From Solirubrobacteraceae bacterium (GTDB taxonomy: Bacteria; Actinomycetota; Thermoleophilia; Solirubrobacterales; Solirubrobacteraceae): a DNA stretch of 56,826 nucleotides. The notes beneath the pieces are model-generated. The model was not told the DNA's origin. It was given only the letters and a program-made list of their open reading frames with translations, and searched no databases. The stretch is from positions 1 to 56,826 of the forward strand of contig DATJMB010000173.1 of NCBI GenBank assembly GCA_035508995.1, written 5' to 3'. The position numbers and the translations under genes are program-made. Each line of letters starts with the position of its first letter. The first letter of the stretch is position 1. Shown in pieces: positions 20,067 to 28,684 of this stretch.

Positions 20067-20945
20067 TCAGGCGGGGGTGTAGATCGCGACCCAGTCGACG
20101 TCGTAGGAGACTTCCTTGGGGGTGGCGGCGCCCGGGCAGGTCTCCCATTCGCCGCCGCAATCCCAGGTCTGGGACTGCAGGGCGAGGTTCATCGGCTGGT
20201 GGGGCACGTTGGCGCCGGTCATCGTGGCCCACACGCGTCCGTCGATCGTGTAGGCGAGCTTGCCGCTCGTCCATTCCACGCCGAGGGTGTGCCATTCGCT
20301 CATGTTCACGCTCAGCGAGTCGGAGGCCTGGCCGAAGCTCGCGGTGCCCAGGGTGCCGTAGTGCAGGGTGGCGACGTTGGTGGCGCGGGGGCTGGCTCCG
20401 GTGTCCTCCACGAAATCGACCTCCGGCGGCCATTCGCCGTCGGAGGGCCACAGCAGCGCCACGATCGGCACGCCCTGGCCGTTGTCGGCGCGCAGGCGCA
20501 CCTCGTACTTGCCGTAGGTCTGCGGCTCTTTCAGCTGCACGCCGCCCGAGACGTAGCCGTCGATCGACTCGCAGCCCCAGGAGGCGATGCAGGTGAGGGG
20601 ATCGACGTAGGTCGCCAGGCGCAGCTCTCCGCCGCTCACCGACACGTGCGAGGGGTCCCACCAACCGCCGGGGTCGCTGCCGGGCTGGCCCCAGTACTCG
20701 CTCCATTCTTCGCCGAGCGGGCCGGTGAATTCATCGGCGAACGTCTGCTTCCAGCCGGTCGGATTGCCCGTGGGCATCGCTTCGCCGGAGGGGCTGCTGG
20801 CGCTGGAGGGGCTGCTCGCGCCGGCATGGGTCTGGGTGCGGTGGGCGGCGCTGGCGGCGGTCGGGCCGACGGCGCCGATTGCCAGTGCCAGCGCGCCGAC
20901 TGTCATCAAATGGCGCCATCTGCGGGATCTCGTTGTCACATGCAA
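20067..20945 (-). CDS. Secreted glycoside hydrolase family 16
   Basis: FADEF, YGKYEVR, catalytic WPPEVDFVE (ExDxxE), WHTLGVEW, YDVDWV; signal peptide. Start may be 20939 or 20906. Confidence 0.9.
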   Translation of the reverse strand: MHVTTRSRRWRHLMTVGALALAIGAVGPTAASAAHRTQTHAGASSPSSASSPSGEAMPTGNPTGWKQTFADEFTGPLGEEWSEYWGQPGSDPGGWWDPSHVSVSGGELRLATYVDPLTCIASWGCESIDGYVSGGVQLKEPQTYGKYEVRLRADNGQGVPIVALLWPSDGEWPPEVDFVEDTGASPRATNVATLHYGTLGTASFGQASDSLSVNMSEWHTLGVEWTSGKLAYTIDGRVWATMTGANVPHQPMNLALQSQTWDCGGEWETCPGAATPKEVSYDVDWVAIYTPA

Positions 20946-23411: not shown

Positions 23412-23507
23412 GCGCCCGTAGCTCAGTGGTCAACGGTTCTCTTCGGGGAGCCAAAGAGCAGCGGTCTTTCAAGCCGCAGGCCGAGGGTTCGATTCCCTCC
23501 GGGCGCA
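23412..23507 (+). tRNA. Atypical tRNA, anticodon TTC (Glu), with 23-nt D-loop insertion; CCA not encoded
   Basis: Acceptor GCGCCCG/CGGGCGC+A; D stem GCTC/GAGC; anticodon arm GCGGT-CTTTCAA-GCCGC; variable region AGGCC; T arm GAGGG-TTCGATT-CCCTC. 96 nt in total, 73 nt without 23433-23455. Confidence 0.88.
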
Positions 23508-23650: not shown

Positions 23651-24577
23651 CTATGTGAGAAAGCGGTGGATGGCCTCGTAGGCGTGGTCCTGAAACGACG
23701 GGTTGGCCAGGTCGGGGAAGATGTCCGTTTGGTCGACCGCGGGACCCTTCAGCTTGTTGGCCGCGCTGGCATAGAACACGCCGCTGGACAGGGTCGGGTC
23801 GGTGACGCCGTCGACCAGTCGCTTCGCGCCCACGTCAAGCTTGTGGGCGAGACCGGGCACGCGGGGCATGACGTACTTGGCCGCCATACGCAGCGGCAAT
23901 GCGAGGTCATCGGGTGCTTGTGTGCCGGTGGTGTTACCAGGGCTCACGCTGATGAATCGCCGGTCGGGGTGTTGGCGGGCGAGGTAGGCCATCCACAGGA
24001 TGCCGATCAACTTGGCCTGCCCATAGGCCAGATTGACGTCAGGCTTGCCGCCGGCGAAATAGCTGCCGTCGATGACAGTGGCGAGCTCGTCAGCGGAGTT
24101 TGACGCGAACGACGGCCGCTTGAACCCCATTTTCGGGATTCCCCTGGCTGCCTCGCTTCCGGCGAACACCGCCACCTCGCCCAGCCGGTCCTCGGCCAGG
24201 AGCGCCTCGAGAAGGACGACGTGGCCAAGGACGTTCTGCGCGAACATGTAAGTGGCCCCATCGGCGGTCAACTTCATGGGCGTCTTGCCGCCCATTCCAC
24301 CGGCGTTCATGACCAGCGCGTCGATCGGTCCGTCGGTGCCCGCCAGGCCGGCGCGGACCGAGCGCGGATCGGACACGTCCATGAGAACGATGTCGAAGAT
24401 GCGCCGGCCGGTCTCGGCCTCGAGCTCGGCCTTTGCCATTGCCGCCCGGTCTTGGTTCCGGCACGCCAAGTAGATGCGGGCCGTCTCGGGGCGCGTTGCC
24501 AGCTGCCGGGCGATCTCTTTGCCGATCCCGACGTTGGCGCCGGTTATCAACGCGGTCTTTTCTGCGGTGGTTTGCAT
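23651..24577 (-). CDS. Short-chain dehydrogenase/reductase
   Basis: TGANVGIG, LACRN, VMNAGG, YGQAK. Confidence 0.9.
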   Translation of the reverse strand: MQTTAEKTALITGANVGIGKEIARQLATRPETARIYLACRNQDRAAMAKAELEAETGRRIFDIVLMDVSDPRSVRAGLAGTDGPIDALVMNAGGMGGKTPMKLTADGATYMFAQNVLGHVVLLEALLAEDRLGEVAVFAGSEAARGIPKMGFKRPSFASNSADELATVIDGSYFAGGKPDVNLAYGQAKLIGILWMAYLARQHPDRRFISVSPGNTTGTQAPDDLALPLRMAAKYVMPRVPGLAHKLDVGAKRLVDGVTDPTLSSGVFYASAANKLKGPAVDQTDIFPDLANPSFQDHAYEAIHRFLT

Positions 24578-24595
24578 TTGAGTGCTTGGCCCCTC

Positions 24596-24638
24596 TCAGA
24601 TCGCGGTGCGGCCGCCGTCGACGTGGATGACTGCGCGC
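24596..24638 (-). pseudogene. C-terminal remnant of a second SDR gene
   Basis: Minus strand reads ...RAVIHVDGGRTAI*, the classic SDR C-terminus, directly after an RBS-like AAAGGGAAA; no start codon or body. Confidence 0.65.
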
Positions 24639-24668
24639 TTTCCCTTTAAGTGGTTGTCGCGACCCTCG

Positions 24669-24722
24669 GAATGGATCGTGCGTTCCACTCTAACACAGAA
24701 TGGATAGCGCGATCCATTCTGT
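24669..24722. promoter_or_regulatory. Two TetR operator palindromes
   Basis: ACAGAATGGAT-agcgcg-ATCCATTCTGT (24695-24722, perfect 11-bp inverted repeat) and GAATGGA-N8-TCCACTC (24669-24690); -10 TAGAAT at 24726-24731. Confidence 0.8.
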
Positions 24723-24738
24723 TGGTAGAATCTTCGGT

Positions 24739-25362
24739 ATGACTACGACCAGCTCCACCCCTCGCCCGTTGACGCGCAAGGGTCAGGAGACCCGTCAGCG
24801 CATCGTCGACGCGGCGGCCGAGCTGATCTTCCGGCAGGGCGTCGCCCACACGACGATTGAGGACGTACGCGCGGCGGCGGACGTCTCGAGCTCGCAGCTG
24901 TACCACTACTTCGAGGACAAGACAGCTTTGGTCTGGGCAGTCGTTGACCACCAGGCCGACACCATGGTCGGCGGGCAGGAGATGTTCGATTTCAGCACCC
25001 CGGAGGGCCTCCGAGCCTGGCGCGACTTCGTGATCGCGGCCCAGCGCGAGCACCACTGCAGCGGCGGCTGCCCAATCGGCTCTCTCGGAGGCCAGCTAGC
25101 CGAGACCGACCCCGACGCAAGAGTCCACGTCGCCGAGGGCTTCAAACGATGGGAAGCCACGATCCAGAGCGGCCTGCGAGCGATGCACGCACGAGGCCAG
25201 CTCCCGCCCGACACCGACCCCGACACCCTCGCCCTCGCGCTGCTAGCCGCCCTGCAGGGCGGGCTGCTCCTCACTCAGGTCAAACGCGACACCAAGCCGC
25301 TAGAGGCCGCGCTTGACGCAATGCTCGAACTGGTCGCCCGGCTCAGCGGCAGCAGCTCGTAG
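24739..25362 (+). CDS. TetR/AcrR regulator (NemR/LmrA-like)
   Basis: TRQRIVDAAAELIFRQGVAHTTIEDV...QLYHYFEDK; GGCPIGSL; probably leaderless. Confidence 0.92.
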   Translation: MTTTSSTPRPLTRKGQETRQRIVDAAAELIFRQGVAHTTIEDVRAAADVSSSQLYHYFEDKTALVWAVVDHQADTMVGGQEMFDFSTPEGLRAWRDFVIAAQREHHCSGGCPIGSLGGQLAETDPDARVHVAEGFKRWEATIQSGLRAMHARGQLPPDTDPDTLALALLAALQGGLLLTQVKRDTKPLEAALDAMLELVARLSGSSS

Positions 25363-25379
25363 CGGCCACGGCTATGGCT

Positions 25380-25530
25380 GGCTGAGCTTCGGTGTCGTCC
25401 CCGATGCTGCTGCGGCAGCCGGCTGGTACACGGCCGCACTCGGCGCGGCCGAGCTCTGGAACCTTGGCGGAGTCGCCGGGCTTCACATAGACGGCGCGCC
25501 GTTCTTCATTCACGCGGCCGACCAGCCGCA
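25380..25530 (+). pseudogene. VOC/glyoxalase (PhnB-like) N-terminal fragment
   Basis: VVPDAAAAAGWYTAALGAAELWNLGGVAGLHIDGAPFFIH with no proper start or second half; boundaries approximate. Confidence 0.55.
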
Positions 25531-25601
25531 AGACGTCGAGCTGGCCCAGTTGCGGTCATTATGCTGCATTCTGCGGCCAGCGACGATGGGAGTAGGTGGC
25601 G

Positions 25602-26348
25602 ATGAAGGGCGAGATGATCGAGATCAGTACACAAGACGGTGTTGCGGACGCATACCTCTCGCGGCCGCCTGGGCAGGACGTGGGCAGCCCGGGTGTGCTG
25701 TTCCTCATGGACGCCTTCGGCTTGCGTCCCCGGATAGAGGAGATGGTCGACCGTATCGCGGCGCGGGGGTTCGTCGTCCTCGCCCCGAACGTCCTCTATC
25801 GCGCCGGCCGGGCGTCGGACATGGAGATGCCCGATCTGGAGGACCCCGCCCAGCGGGATCCGTTCTTCGCGCGGCTGAGGCCTGCCATGGCGCAGCTGAC
25901 GCCGGAGCGGATCGCCAGCGACGGGGCTGCGTACCTCGGCTGTCTCGGCGAGATCGCGAGCCCGCCGTTTGCGATCACCGGCTATTGCATGGGTGGGCGC
26001 GTAGGCTGGCGGATCGCCGCCGCCTACCCGGAGCGCGTCGCGGCGCTCGCCGCCTTCCACGCAGGGGGCCTGGTGAGCGACGACGATGACAGTCCGCACC
26101 TGAGCGCGGGCGCGATCTCCGCCGAGCTCTACTTCGGCCACGCCGACAACGACCAGAGCATGACCCCAGAGCACGTAGCGAAGCTCGAGCAAGCCCTCGA
26201 GGACGCCGGGGTGCGGTATCGCTCAGAGCTCTACGAGGGAGCCGCCCACGGCTACACGATGAGCGACACCGCCGCCTACGACGAGGCGGCCGCGGAGCGC
26301 CACTTCAGCGAGCTGTTCGCGCTGCTGGATCGCACGATCGGCGGCTGA
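25602..26348 (+). CDS. Dienelactone hydrolase family protein
   Basis: MDAFGLR, nucleophile GYCMGG, FHAG, ADND, YEGAAHGY. Confidence 0.92.
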   Translation: MKGEMIEISTQDGVADAYLSRPPGQDVGSPGVLFLMDAFGLRPRIEEMVDRIAARGFVVLAPNVLYRAGRASDMEMPDLEDPAQRDPFFARLRPAMAQLTPERIASDGAAYLGCLGEIASPPFAITGYCMGGRVGWRIAAAYPERVAALAAFHAGGLVSDDDDSPHLSAGAISAELYFGHADNDQSMTPEHVAKLEQALEDAGVRYRSELYEGAAHGYTMSDTAAYDEAAAERHFSELFALLDRTIGG

Positions 26349-26437
26349 CGGACGCGAGGCCGGCTCTCTCAAACAGAGGGCGCTTGTGGGGTGACGCGAC
26401 ACTACGCGGCGCGTCGTCACGCGAGCGTGCCGCTGCT

Positions 26438-27355
26438 TCAGTGGCCTTTGTCCTGGTGGCGGCGCGGCACTGACTCCGCGAACACCGAGCTCACGTCGTC
26501 GTCTGCGTGGCCGTCCGCGATCGCCTGCCGCCACCGGGGCGCAAGTGCCGCGGTGAGCGGCAGGCTCAGGCCCATCTCCTGAGCCGCATCGAGCGCGAGA
26601 GACGCATCCTTGAAAGCCAGCCGCAGGGCAAAGCCGGGGGTGTAGTCGCCGGAGATCATCGCTCGCGCCTTCGCCACCGCGTAGCGAGATCCGAGCGGGG
26701 CGTCGTCGATCGCTTCCGGGAACAGGTGCGGATCGAGTCCAAGCGCCTCGGTCAGCGCCAGCGTCTCGGCGACCGCCTCGACCTGCGCCACAAGCCAGTT
26801 GTTGAGCACGAGCTTCATCCGTGTTCCCCCTCCCGTTGGCCCGAGCCATATCGTTTCGCGACCGATCGCGTCGAAGATCGGCTGCACTCGGGCTCGTGCT
26901 TTATCCGGGCCCGAGGCGAGCACGATCAGCTTGGCTTCCCTAGCGGGACCATCGCTGCCGGACACCGGCGCGTCGACGAGCTCGACACCGTGCTCCGCCG
27001 CCAGATCGGAAAGCCGGCCGGTCCAGTCGAGACCCACAGTGGCCATCTGAATCCACGTCGAGTCCGGTCGCATCGCTTCGAGTGCTCCCGCCGGTCCGCT
27101 CATCGCCTCGTGCACGGCCGCGCCGTCCGCAAGCATCGTCAGCACGACGTCGGCGTTCTTCGCGGCATCGGCAGGCGACGAGGCGAGGAGGGCGCCGTCG
27201 TCCACGAGGAGTGCTGCCCTGGCGGCGGTCCGGTTCCAAGCCGATACCGGGAAGCCCGCGGCGAGCAGGTTGCGCGCGATCGGGGACCCCATGCTGCCGG
27301 TTCCCAGCACCGCGACGGCGCTTCGACCGGAGCCCTGCTGTGGGGAGCTTGTCAT
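26438..27355 (-). CDS. NAD(P)-dependent beta-hydroxyacid dehydrogenase (3-hydroxyisobutyrate DH-like)
   Basis: LGTGSMG, WNRT, DAPVSGS, MKLVLN, FALRLAFKD; AAGGAG RBS. Confidence 0.9.
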   Translation of the reverse strand: MTSSPQQGSGRSAVAVLGTGSMGSPIARNLLAAGFPVSAWNRTAARAALLVDDGALLASSPADAAKNADVVLTMLADGAAVHEAMSGPAGALEAMRPDSTWIQMATVGLDWTGRLSDLAAEHGVELVDAPVSGSDGPAREAKLIVLASGPDKARARVQPIFDAIGRETIWLGPTGGGTRMKLVLNNWLVAQVEAVAETLALTEALGLDPHLFPEAIDDAPLGSRYAVAKARAMISGDYTPGFALRLAFKDASLALDAAQEMGLSLPLTAALAPRWRQAIADGHADDDVSSVFAESVPRRHQDKGH

Positions 27356-27416
27356 CGGTTCTCTCCTTCGTCGAATGGGTCGCGCTCTACACGTGCTATT
27401 GCGCCGATGGCAGCGG

Positions 27417-27818
27417 CTATTGCGCGGACGGCATCCCCTCCGGGGAGGGCCCCCCGATCGGCACCGAGCCGGCCATGATGCGCTCGATCTGCTCGAGGTC
27501 GGCCTCGCTCAGCCTCAGCTCCGCCGCTGCCAGGCTGTCTTCGATGTGACGAGGGTGCCGGGCGCCCACGATCGCGACATTCGCGGCCGGATTCGCCAGC
27601 GTCCAGGCCACGGCGAGCTGGGCGACCGAGCAACCCAGTTGCTCCGTGGCGAATCGCTTCAGCCGATCGACGACCTCCAGGTTCCGCCTGAAGGCGATCC
27701 CCTCGCCCTCGTCGAACCCTCCCCACTCCCCCCCGAGCTGCCAGGTGCCGAAGGCAATCGCAGAGACCTCCAGACCGGTGCTGCCAAGAGTGACGGGACT
27801 CAGAACAGTGGATGACAC
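27417..27818 (-). pseudogene. Aldo/keto reductase with large in-frame internal deletion
   Basis: N-terminal LGSTGLEVSAIAFGTWQLGG joins directly at ~27692 to C-terminal FRRNLEVVD...AQLAVAWTL...IVGAR; only 133 aa. Confidence 0.8.
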
Positions 27819-27886
27819 GACGACCCTTTCTTGCCGATCGCTCTGGCGCGTCGCGGGCCCTGCGGTTGGCGCCCTGCTTCCAGCCA

Positions 27887-28684
27887 TTATCCGCTCCAGC
27901 CCAGCACCCGCGCTGTGACCCCTTCGATCGTCCGCTCGCCGTAGGCCATCGACGGATCGTGAACGGTGAGCACCGCCAGAGCGAACACGACCCCCGGCCG
28001 TTCCAGTCGCGCGACCTGATTGACCAGTCCTTCGACTTCCGGCAGCCAGCCGCCCTTGAAGAAGACCTGGAACTCGGGACGAGCGACCGCCGGTATCCCC
28101 CAGCTCTCATCGCGTTCGATGGTCGACAGCAGCCAGCGCGCAAACCCGTCGAATTGACGCGGAATGAGCGCTTCCTGGTGGAAGAAGAAGCGCGCCAGGT
28201 CGCTCGCCGAGACCTCCGTGAAGCCCCACGAAGCGCCGCCCGGCTCGTAGTCGACCATGTGCGCCTCCCTGGCGACCCGATCGAGCCTCTTCTCCCCGAC
28301 GATCGCGAGCACCGCCGAGGCCGCTTCGTTGTCCGAGGAGTGAATCATCGGATAGAGCAGCCCCCGGCTGGCGCTGTCCAGAGGTCGGTGCTGGTGGGCG
28401 AGCATCTGCAGGTAGGCGACCAGCAGCATCGACTTGACCACGCTCGCCGAATGGAAGCGGCGGTGCAGTTGGACCCCGGTCACCTTGCCGCGGTCGTTGA
28501 CCACCGCGAAGGCCTTGGTGCCCGCCCGGCCCGCGAGGTAGCGCCCGGCCGCGCTCACCCGCCCAGAGAGCGGGTACACCGGCTGCGGCTCGCGCGGTTC
28601 TCCCGCCACCGGACCGGCCCGCGCGAGCGATGCCGGCACCGTGCACGACGCCACGACACCGATCCATAGCCATACGCCTCTCAT
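27887..28684 (-). CDS. Secreted class A beta-lactamase-like serine hydrolase
   Basis: SASVVK (SxxK), SDN, FKGGW; signal peptide from ATG 28684. Confidence 0.82.
   Translation of the reverse strand: MRGVWLWIGVVASCTVPASLARAGPVAGEPREPQPVYPLSGRVSAAGRYLAGRAGTKAFAVVNDRGKVTGVQLHRRFHSASVVKSMLLVAYLQMLAHQHRPLDSASRGLLYPMIHSSDNEAASAVLAIVGEKRLDRVAREAHMVDYEPGGASWGFTEVSASDLARFFFHQEALIPRQFDGFARWLLSTIERDESWGIPAVARPEFQVFFKGGWLPEVEGLVNQVARLERPGVVFALAVLTVHDPSMAYGERTIEGVTARVLGWSG

Follow-up and report, generated by a model that had tools for sequence, protein, structure and literature searches.

A tRNA gene with a fifth arm, a remodelled LysRS paralogue and a membrane-split use of GAA in Solirubrobacterales: a candidate for a naturally expanded genetic code

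Introduction

Why should a tRNA carry an additional hairpin inside its D-loop, and which amino acid does such a tRNA deliver? The question is raised by the single tRNA gene (23412-23507, plus strand) in a 56,826-nt stretch of DNA, here called the window, from a Solirubrobacteraceae bacterium whose genome we denote G000 and whose genus we denote g1. A first, sequence-only reading had given letters and coordinates of the gene correctly, and had proposed either a retained fifth arm or a pathway that removes the extra nucleotides. Here, we follow the gene through related genomes, together with a LysRS paralogue that accompanies it and the codon that it reads. Genomes are called "armed" when their tRNA has the extra D-loop hairpin.

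Results

A lysine-type tRNA body with the anticodon UUC

The Rfam tRNA model (RF00005) matches 23412-23507 with 66.2 bits (cut-off 29), with a 25-nt insertion in the D-loop of an otherwise perfect cloverleaf. As proposed, leaving out 23433-23455 gives a 73-nt tRNA with the D-loop AGTGGTCA. The 5' strand of the D-stem, GCTC (23421-23424, with C11 and C13), pairs by its sequence with 23456-23459. It is followed by the single-stranded 5' part of the D-loop, AGTGGTCAAC (23425-23434), which holds A14, G15, G18 and G19 and is conserved, with 9 of 10 columns invariant in 44 variants, an invariance that stems in part from variant selection, as the search pattern contained those letters. The extra arm (23435-23452) and an AAA linker (23453-23455), the final A of which is the equivalent of A21, complete the loop. 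The tertiary-core bases U8, A14, G15, G18, G19 and C48 and the T-loop are kept; CCA is not encoded.

The anticodon, absent from the sequence-only reading, is UUC (23468-23470) in the anticodon loop CUUUCAA, and reads GAA; ARAGORN calls a wrong anticodon for the armed tRNA. The body is of lysine type and resembles the tRNA-Lys(CUU) of the same genome, with the D-stem GCUC/GAGC, a 5-nt variable loop AGGCC (23478-23482, with residue 47 present and C48) and discriminator A73. U34, U35, C36 and A37 of canonical tRNA-Glu are present. Excerpts of a review (PMC9976931) list U11-A24, U13-G22:A46 and a lack of residue 47 as major Glu determinants in E. coli, and all three, so defined in E. coli, are missing from the armed tRNA; C11-G24 and C13-G22 are found in 44/44 armed variants. 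U11-A24 is present in the tRNA-Glu(CUC) and both tRNA-Gln of G000, from which the armed tRNA differs. The genome has one GluRS-family gene.

A promoter scan found none, repeats of the armed tRNA of at least 14 nt were not found elsewhere in the window, and dedicated neighbour genes conserved beside the tRNA were not found in g1. Behind the tRNA lies a stretch of lower GC content (23651-27900) with SDR, TetR and dienelactone hydrolase genes, and in relatives downstream repeats of the tRNA 3' half are frequent, as at integration sites.

The arm covaries, keeps its size and is probably retained

The arm consists of a 7-bp stem (23435-23441 with 23446-23452) and the 4-nt loop TTCG (23442-23445). 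In a set of 44 distinct 96-nt variants, 6 of the 7 pairs are changed on both sides, 98.7% of cells are paired, and none of 500 shuffles attains the whole-structure scores, so that the hairpin proposed for the D-loop is borne out. In the minimum-energy fold of the window variant the D-loop is paired differently, and the support for the hairpin therefore comes from covariation and not from energy. The very stable cUUCGg cap, which had been taken as a sign of selection, did not survive the comparison. Only 11 of 30 distinct arms have the loop TTCG, and the arms divide equally between C-G (15) and U-G (15) as closing pair, whereas the size, 7 bp plus 4 nt, is conserved. Because loop and closing pair vary, it is the size of the arm, and not the UUCG motif, that is under selection, and the argument from an optimal tetraloop fails. 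The insertion is not unique to this assembly, one of the doubts first attached to it, and is not a product of chance: the gene is full-length in 22 of 24 same-genus genomes, and contigs from 7 of 8 RNA-library runs span the arm (nothing was recovered from the eighth, X23), which excludes an assembly artefact or att remnant. The insertion lies between residues 20 and 21, where additional bases are tolerated, near the point where long variable arms exit from the tRNA core.

The arm is likely kept in the mature tRNA, since neither RtcB (0/27 armed genomes vs 3/10 unarmed) nor EndA (G000, which is 74% complete) was found, no splice motif is conserved, and no gene without the arm turned up in 668 loci, viral contigs and 301 genomes of the class. 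Excision and ligation, the other pathway first suggested, would make the 23 nt an intron, cut out by an unknown endonuclease and ligated to leave a 73-nt tRNA. In favour of such an intron, an alternative 4-bp helix with two 3-nt bulges would excise exactly 23433-23455 in the window variant, 15 of 30 arms allow all four pairs of this bulge-helix-bulge helix, related genes have inserts as long as about 140 nt at the same place, and the RNA data are unable to reveal the mature form. However, the alternative helix has no both-sided change and has one pair broken in 18 of 44 variants, and no spliced joint occurs in the arm-spanning contigs from 7 RNA-library runs, contigs that hold 5' leaders and may be precursors or DNA. 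Together with the missing RtcB, the co-occurrence of which had been named as a sign of processing, and the missing EndA and arm-less gene, this makes an intron extremely improbable. Among the functions first suggested for a fifth arm, protein recognition and the exclusion of synthetases are supported. Exclusion from the ribosome is unlikely, since the genomes use GAA and no reader of it other than the armed tRNA was found.

The armed tRNA is as a rule the only reader of GAA

Records that match the armed tRNA are, among the matches listed, mostly titled Solirubrobacterales or Solirubrobacteraceae. In 220 other genomes of the order, the armed pattern was found in 10/10 genomes of g1 and, in another family, in g55 (7/7) and g63 (3/3), and in 0/58 other genomes of its own family; one further match, in G200, was taken as chance. 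The Lys-type UUC body pattern occurs in 5/301 class genomes, with no tRNA match outside the order. Most unarmed genera carry an ordinary tRNA-Glu(UUC). In three Solirubrobacterales genera it has been lost, and the armed tRNA is the only UUC tRNA found. The armed-type 3' half is present in 59/64 genus genomes (a hand count among the matches listed), and, among the matches listed, an ordinary Glu(UUC) was seen in one g1 genome, on a 3.3-kb contig. In a relaxed search of 61 armed genomes, judged by eye with one candidate checked, all matches were armed variants, repeats of these or noise at the level of the controls. The frequency of GAA in G000 is about 9.6 per 1000 codons. As there is as a rule no other GAA reader and the codon is used, the armed tRNA gene is likely essential. 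Editing of C36 to U, which would yield a tRNA-Lys, is unneeded, as most g1 genomes have a separate tRNA-Lys(UUU). This tRNA has a 4-nt variable loop in g1.

Viral contigs, too, contain armed copies, which in two cases belong to tRNA arrays and supply the UUC tRNA of the stretch examined, and the same scaffold occurs in mobile DNA with the anticodons UUU, CCU, UGC, UGU and ACC and with arms of 16-46 nt. These viral or mobile scaffolds are at loci L183, L186, L189, L081, L130, L030, L049, L311 and L395; the UGC copy is without G3-U70. Another unusual tRNA-like element is found in L183 and L186 near 1215-1305, at a distance of 1.8 kb from the armed CCU tRNA; ARAGORN assigns it to tRNA-Glu, its D and variable region is long, and it is possibly Sec-like. 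In G260, an integrase follows the armed tRNA. The viral copies, the mobile scaffolds, this integrase and the 3'-half repeats downstream of the gene in many genomes speak for a phage origin, by which an armed phage gene replaced the host gene at an integration site, the arm being an anticodon-nuclease shield or neutral, and the synthetase paralogue and codon bias described below separate traits.

Longer inserts are found beside LeuRS genes. At L434:3228-3438, L435:3080-3289 and L436:3124-3330 (G019, G002 and G009), tRNAs with the same scaffold, a branched D-loop insert of about 140 nt and a UUG anticodon lie directly behind a LeuRS paralogue. A further UUC tRNA at L024, L025 and L438 (G026, G031) has about 130 nt inserted in its D-loop and immediately precedes a degenerate LeuRS-like gene of 645 aa; the cluster also includes ATP-grasp, aminotransferase, glutamine amidotransferase and amino-acid kinase genes. 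These two genomes also retain an ordinary tRNA-Glu(UUC) candidate, and the long-insert tRNA of G031 is an extra copy. G000 itself has a second LeuRS-like gene (C164:1976-4333), 44-49% identical to the three same-genus LeuRS paralogues; no long-insert tRNA was found beside it. The genome also has three tRNAs with a UAA anticodon (C26:71-143, C183:1526-1609 and C228:5196-5280) though TTA is very rare; in the one on C26 the variable arm is short and the anticodon stem is mismatched.

A pocket-remodelled LysRS paralogue accompanies the armed tRNA

A second LysRS match is present in 21/21 armed genomes (g1 13/13, two of them partial; g55/g63 8/8) and in 7/46 unarmed ones. In five of the latter the second match lies in a long frame, which we take to be a LysX-type fusion. 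A branch with support 97/94 sets the paralogues of armed genomes and the G206 paralogue apart on one side, and the distance between paralogue and armed tRNA is 1-6 kb in 5 of 8 g55/g63 genomes.

The paralogue is full length, and its N-terminal OB region aligns to LysRS. It scores over the lysine-tRNA ligase cut-offs and below those for EpmA (176 vs 287 bits) and LysX; PylS gives no match for the G000 paralogue, and related paralogues reach 22-30 bits vs a cut-off of 178. Compared with E. coli LysU, the G000 paralogue has Y280M, N424S, F426D and K244N, with E240, E278 and E428 kept; the g55/g63 paralogue has, in LysU numbering, Y280F, N424G, F426G and E428D. We take the compared residues (280, 424, 426 and others) to line the lysine pocket. 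A single-sequence structure prediction (pLDDT 34.5) was too low in quality to inform.

In g1, the paralogue is the first gene of an operon (C217:3948-9019 in G000) and is followed by the alpha and beta subunits of lysine 5,6-aminomutase (kamD, kamE) and the KamB reactivase (kamB), all three matching over the NCBIfam cut-offs. The aminomutase, which converts alpha-lysine to 2,5-diaminohexanoate, is found in 12/13 g1 genomes and 0/54 others. In g55/g63 and G206, the paralogue is preceded by a second-copy PrmC-like methyltransferase. Excerpts of PMC5686429 describe lysine 5,6-aminomutase in clostridial lysine catabolism. Lysine fermentation is probably not its role here, as lysine 2,3-aminomutase was found in none of the 5 genomes checked; a BKACE-family gene is present in 5/5, but among acyl-CoA genes according to the ORF reading.

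One invariant glutamate of motif 1 of the paralogue is encoded by GAA in 19/19 armed genomes. The 12 comparison enzymes (10 of them housekeeping, the others from G206 and G144) have GAG there, and at five further invariant Glu columns of the paralogue the armed genomes have GAG in 19/19. This hard-wired GAA ties the enzyme to GAA decoding, perhaps as a feedback. It is co-occurrence, adjacency and the hard-wired GAA that pair the paralogue with the armed tRNA. Another pocket-remodelled LysRS is encoded in G144 (L486:9461-12491), divergent from a tRNA-Lys(UUU) and a desaturase/hydroxylase-like gene. With AAA as its codon, this may be a third system; a GAA bias is absent from the two exported genes seen there.

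GAA and GAG are split at the membrane

In the armed genomes G000 and G268, GAA accounts for 65-70% of Glu codons in exported domains vs 12-14% inside, where ORFs and exported or soluble classes are heuristic calls that include antisense artefacts. The GAA share in G000 is two-peaked, and nearly all top genes start with signal peptides. Its mature exported parts have a share of 0.65 (1243 GAA, 666 GAG) vs 0.12 for soluble ORFs, and 61/81 exported genes exceed 0.5. Samples of 200-400 kb each gave 0.70 vs 0.14 for armed G268, and 0.04 and 0.13 in the exported parts of the unarmed relatives G110 and G206. Within single genes, the switch falls at transmembrane helices: GAA/GAG counts are 10/1 outside and 2/55 inside for FtsH, 10/2 on the PASTA side and 1/22 in the kinase of PknB, and 8/2 outside and 0/19 inside for a Wzc-like protein. 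The window has its own example of the codon split in an exported GH16 glycoside hydrolase (20067-20945, minus strand; 9 GAA, 8 GAG), in which both glutamates of the catalytic motif (residues 175 and 180) are GAG.

Neighbouring-base context was ruled out as a cause, as the export bias is present in every context. CAA and the other NNA codons are not raised in exported parts, with the exception of AAA, the share of which among Lys codons is 0.26 in exported vs 0.11 in soluble parts (G000) and 0.43 vs 0.22 (G268). As AAA is also raised, the paralogue might serve tRNA-Lys(UUU) instead.

Paralogue and bias speak against the phage origin raised above. Armed tRNA, related paralogues and bias are common to two distant lineages, tRNA and paralogue are neighbours in most of the g55/g63 genomes, and the paralogue was not found in viral contigs in a search limited to close relatives. 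The nested, unarmed genome G206 lacks the GAA bias and has GAG at the hard-wired site. Replacement by a phage gene with otherwise separate traits thus appears highly unlikely to us.

Site by site, GAA and GAG are not freely interchanged in exported domains

In the outer domain of PBP2, sites that are GAA in one armed genome are GAA in 58%, GAG in 5% and CAG in 9% of cases in its kin, in a table that leaves out 2 of 30 unarmed and 1 of 5 g55/g63 loci (stop in the span or failed extraction). The PBP2 fixation index in 6 g1 genomes is 0.80 for GAA/GAG and 0.61 for AAA/AAG, compared with -0.14 to 0.32 for nine other synonymous pairs, and the GAA/GAG index in 11 unarmed genomes is -0.05. For MltG (20 of 30 armed matches taken in), the g1 index is 0.70 for GAA/GAG vs 0.07-0.39 for other pairs. 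The g55/g63 GAA/GAG indices, 0.69 and, for MltG, 0.58, are not clearly above those of other pairs (up to 0.49 and 0.56), and in their cytoplasmic LysRS paralogue one other codon pair scores above GAA/GAG. In cytoplasmic KamD the index is a neutral 0.12, with 2 of 11 loci left out. In exported domains GAA is therefore not the free synonym of GAG that a canonical tRNA-Glu would make it. All these site counts come from two lineages and one natural control (G206) and are thus not independent, so that p-values for the PBP2 and MltG sites are overstated.

Glutamates under strong constraint tend to stay on GAG. Two MltG Glu columns that are invariant in 10 unarmed genes are GAG in 21/21 armed genes, one invariant PBP2 glutamate is GAG in 10/10, and MltG columns with at least 80% Glu have 65 GAG and 19 GAA, compared with 80 GAG and 181 GAA in other columns. 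Where armed genes have GAA columns, 18-23% of the cells of unarmed orthologues are Glu and 4-7% are Lys, with Gln and Asp frequent; GAA sites exchange with Gln, Glu, Asp and Ala and seldom with Lys or Arg. GAA does fill some invariant positions: the Glu of the invariant MltG LEG column is GAA in 12/14 g1 and 1/7 g55/g63 genomes, two invariant PBP2 Glu columns are filled by GAA in 2/4 and 4/6, and pilin Glu5 is GAA at 1/4 sites. In conserved, mostly cytoplasmic genes GAA aligns to Glu at 24/39 sites and to Lys at 0/39, by which reassignment of GAA to lysine is rejected. The exchange table for the soluble class is inflated by antisense ORFs, which likewise swamped a scan for HExxH-type motifs. 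As GAA aligns mostly to Glu in these genes and is neutral in KamD, its residue must be tolerated as Glu. The residue delivered by GAA is Glu-like.

Discussion

Taken together, our sequence comparisons make us lean slightly towards a model in which the paralogue charges the armed tRNA, and GAA encodes a Glu-like non-standard residue while GAG encodes true glutamate. The armed tRNA would have left the GluRS pool and would likely be charged by the remodelled LysRS paralogue rather than by GluRS. The arm would likely serve the paralogue, or a converting enzyme dependent on tRNA, as a mark for recognition, and would also block GluRS and the housekeeping LysRS. The residue loaded by the paralogue would be methylated or derived from lysine, and it may undergo a further conversion once on the tRNA. 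Selection would then have moved GAA onto surface positions of exported domains and kept true Glu on GAG, although decoding of GAA may be mixed and yield Glu in part. Against this model speak the GAA codons at some invariant Glu positions, the different accessory enzymes of the two lineages, and G206, which has the paralogue operon but neither the armed tRNA nor the bias. There is also tension between the acidic pocket, which predicts an amine substrate, and the Gln/Glu-like exchange at GAA sites.

If the residue of g1 is to be named, it may be the lysine isomer made by the aminomutase, 2,5-diaminohexanoate, as a mimic of the shape of Gln or Glu, an identification that we consider distinctly unlikely. 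Since GAA sites exchange with Gln, Glu, Asp and Ala and rarely with Lys or Arg, the isomer would probably be neutralised further. The second lineage, with a PrmC-like methyltransferase in place of the aminomutase, may use an N-methylated residue such as N5-methyl-glutamine.

The main rival model, in our view rather unlikely, is that the arm is retained, that the tRNA delivers plain Glu, and that the choice between GAA and GAG is a speed or regulation code. GluRS would charge the tRNA, or else the paralogue, in the role of a class II GluRS or tRNA-modifying enzyme. The code would link how exported segments are translated to translocation, or to the status of lysine/B12. New chemistry would be unnecessary, the alignment of GAA mostly to Glu in cytoplasmic genes and at some invariant Glu columns would be explained, and the hard-wired GAA in the paralogue would fit a feedback by tRNA supply. 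However, a speed preference at the level of segments does not predict that single sites stay GAA or GAG between species, and it leaves unexpected that catalytic glutamates stay GAG inside GAA-rich domains. Moreover, the pocket of the paralogue gains an acid and no base, which, going by the residue roles that we assume, makes it unsuited to a carboxylate, and the armed tRNA is without the Glu identity elements of the genome's other GluRS substrates.

More tentatively than the charging model, and with somewhat less than even confidence, we suggest that these genera have a naturally expanded code, in which the codon GAA, a five-armed tRNA and its own LysRS-derived synthetase place an extra amino acid that coats exported proteins, and that the long-arm tRNAs beside LeuRS paralogues are further arm-tagged orthogonal pairs. 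The extra amino acid would then be lysine-derived in g1 and methylated in the sister lineage. Should GAA not stand for glutamate, the 22 encoded amino acids known so far would gain a natural further member, through the splitting of a two-codon box. Standard codon-reassignment screens would miss such a residue, since it aligns like Glu, and thousands of positions in the surface proteins of an abundant soil lineage would be mis-annotated. Such a tRNA and its synthetase, with the new arm for recognition, would also be available as an orthogonal pair. Even with plain Glu, no counterpart emerged from the literature searched for a likely essential five-armed tRNA or for a choice of codon that changes over at the membrane inside one and the same gene: in open PubMed Central and bioRxiv full text, no paper was found on the armed tRNA, the link between paralogue and aminomutase, or the codon split.

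Comparison with known systems

The armed tRNA shares with canonical tRNA-Glu(UUC), the substrate of GluRS (RF00005; identity set in PMC9976931), the cloverleaf core, UUC with A37 (C37 in two armed variants) and G1-C72, and differs from it in having C11-G24, C13-G22 and residue 47 in place of U11-A24, U13-G22 and no residue 47. Like canonical tRNA-Glu(UUC), it fills the GAA slot, both in hosts and in two phage tRNA arrays. Unlike it, it has a fifth arm, and GAA is not interchangeable with GAG.

Archaeal D-loop introns, which have a bulge-helix-bulge motif, are inserted like the arm at about position 20/21-21/22. In contrast to them, the armed tRNA has a bacterial host and a fixed, covarying hairpin, the motif is not conserved, and EndA (searched in G000 only) and RtcB (in 27 genomes) were not found. 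Part of a preprint on Asgard tRNA genes describes enlarged D-loops (bioRxiv 10.64898/2026.10.13.758758), and the passages covered of a review of non-canonical tRNAs (PMC7609411) contain no D-loop arm.

Excerpts of PMC9437257 describe in Streptomyces a ProRSx/tRNA-ProA system that likewise combines a duplicated synthetase with an odd tRNA reading a sense codon of another amino acid; in it, the amino acid of the synthetase is unchanged and the odd tRNA is an additional one. The armed system departs from this in its remodelled pocket, in the loss of the ordinary tRNA, in an operon that includes an amino-acid-modifying enzyme, and in a usage divided between compartments. With its changed pocket, and with Lys in few cells of the GAA columns of unarmed genomes, the paralogue does not appear to keep its parent amino acid.

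EpmA is without an anticodon-binding domain and modifies EF-P, and the lysine aminomutase EpmB is its partner. Unlike EpmA, the paralogue described here is full length and stays below the EpmA cut-off. As in the EpmA/EpmB pair, a LysRS paralogue is here linked to a lysine aminomutase; excerpts of PMC9437257 cover EpmA (PoxA/GenX) and LysX.

The genera studied here have a UUC instead of an amber anticodon, and their paralogue has no PylS match over the cut-off. The pyrrolysine system comprises PylRS, tRNA-Pyl (its features are covered in PMC7609411) and pylBCD, a dedicated class II synthetase with a lysine-rearranging enzyme encoded beside it. If our favoured model holds, the armed tRNA and the paralogue would work by analogy with this system, as a class II synthetase with a non-canonical tRNA and, in g1, a lysine-rearranging enzyme, with the differences that the codon is a sense codon and not amber, that the synthetase derives from LysRS and not PylRS, that the tRNA has another shape, and that the residue would be placed at thousands of sites.
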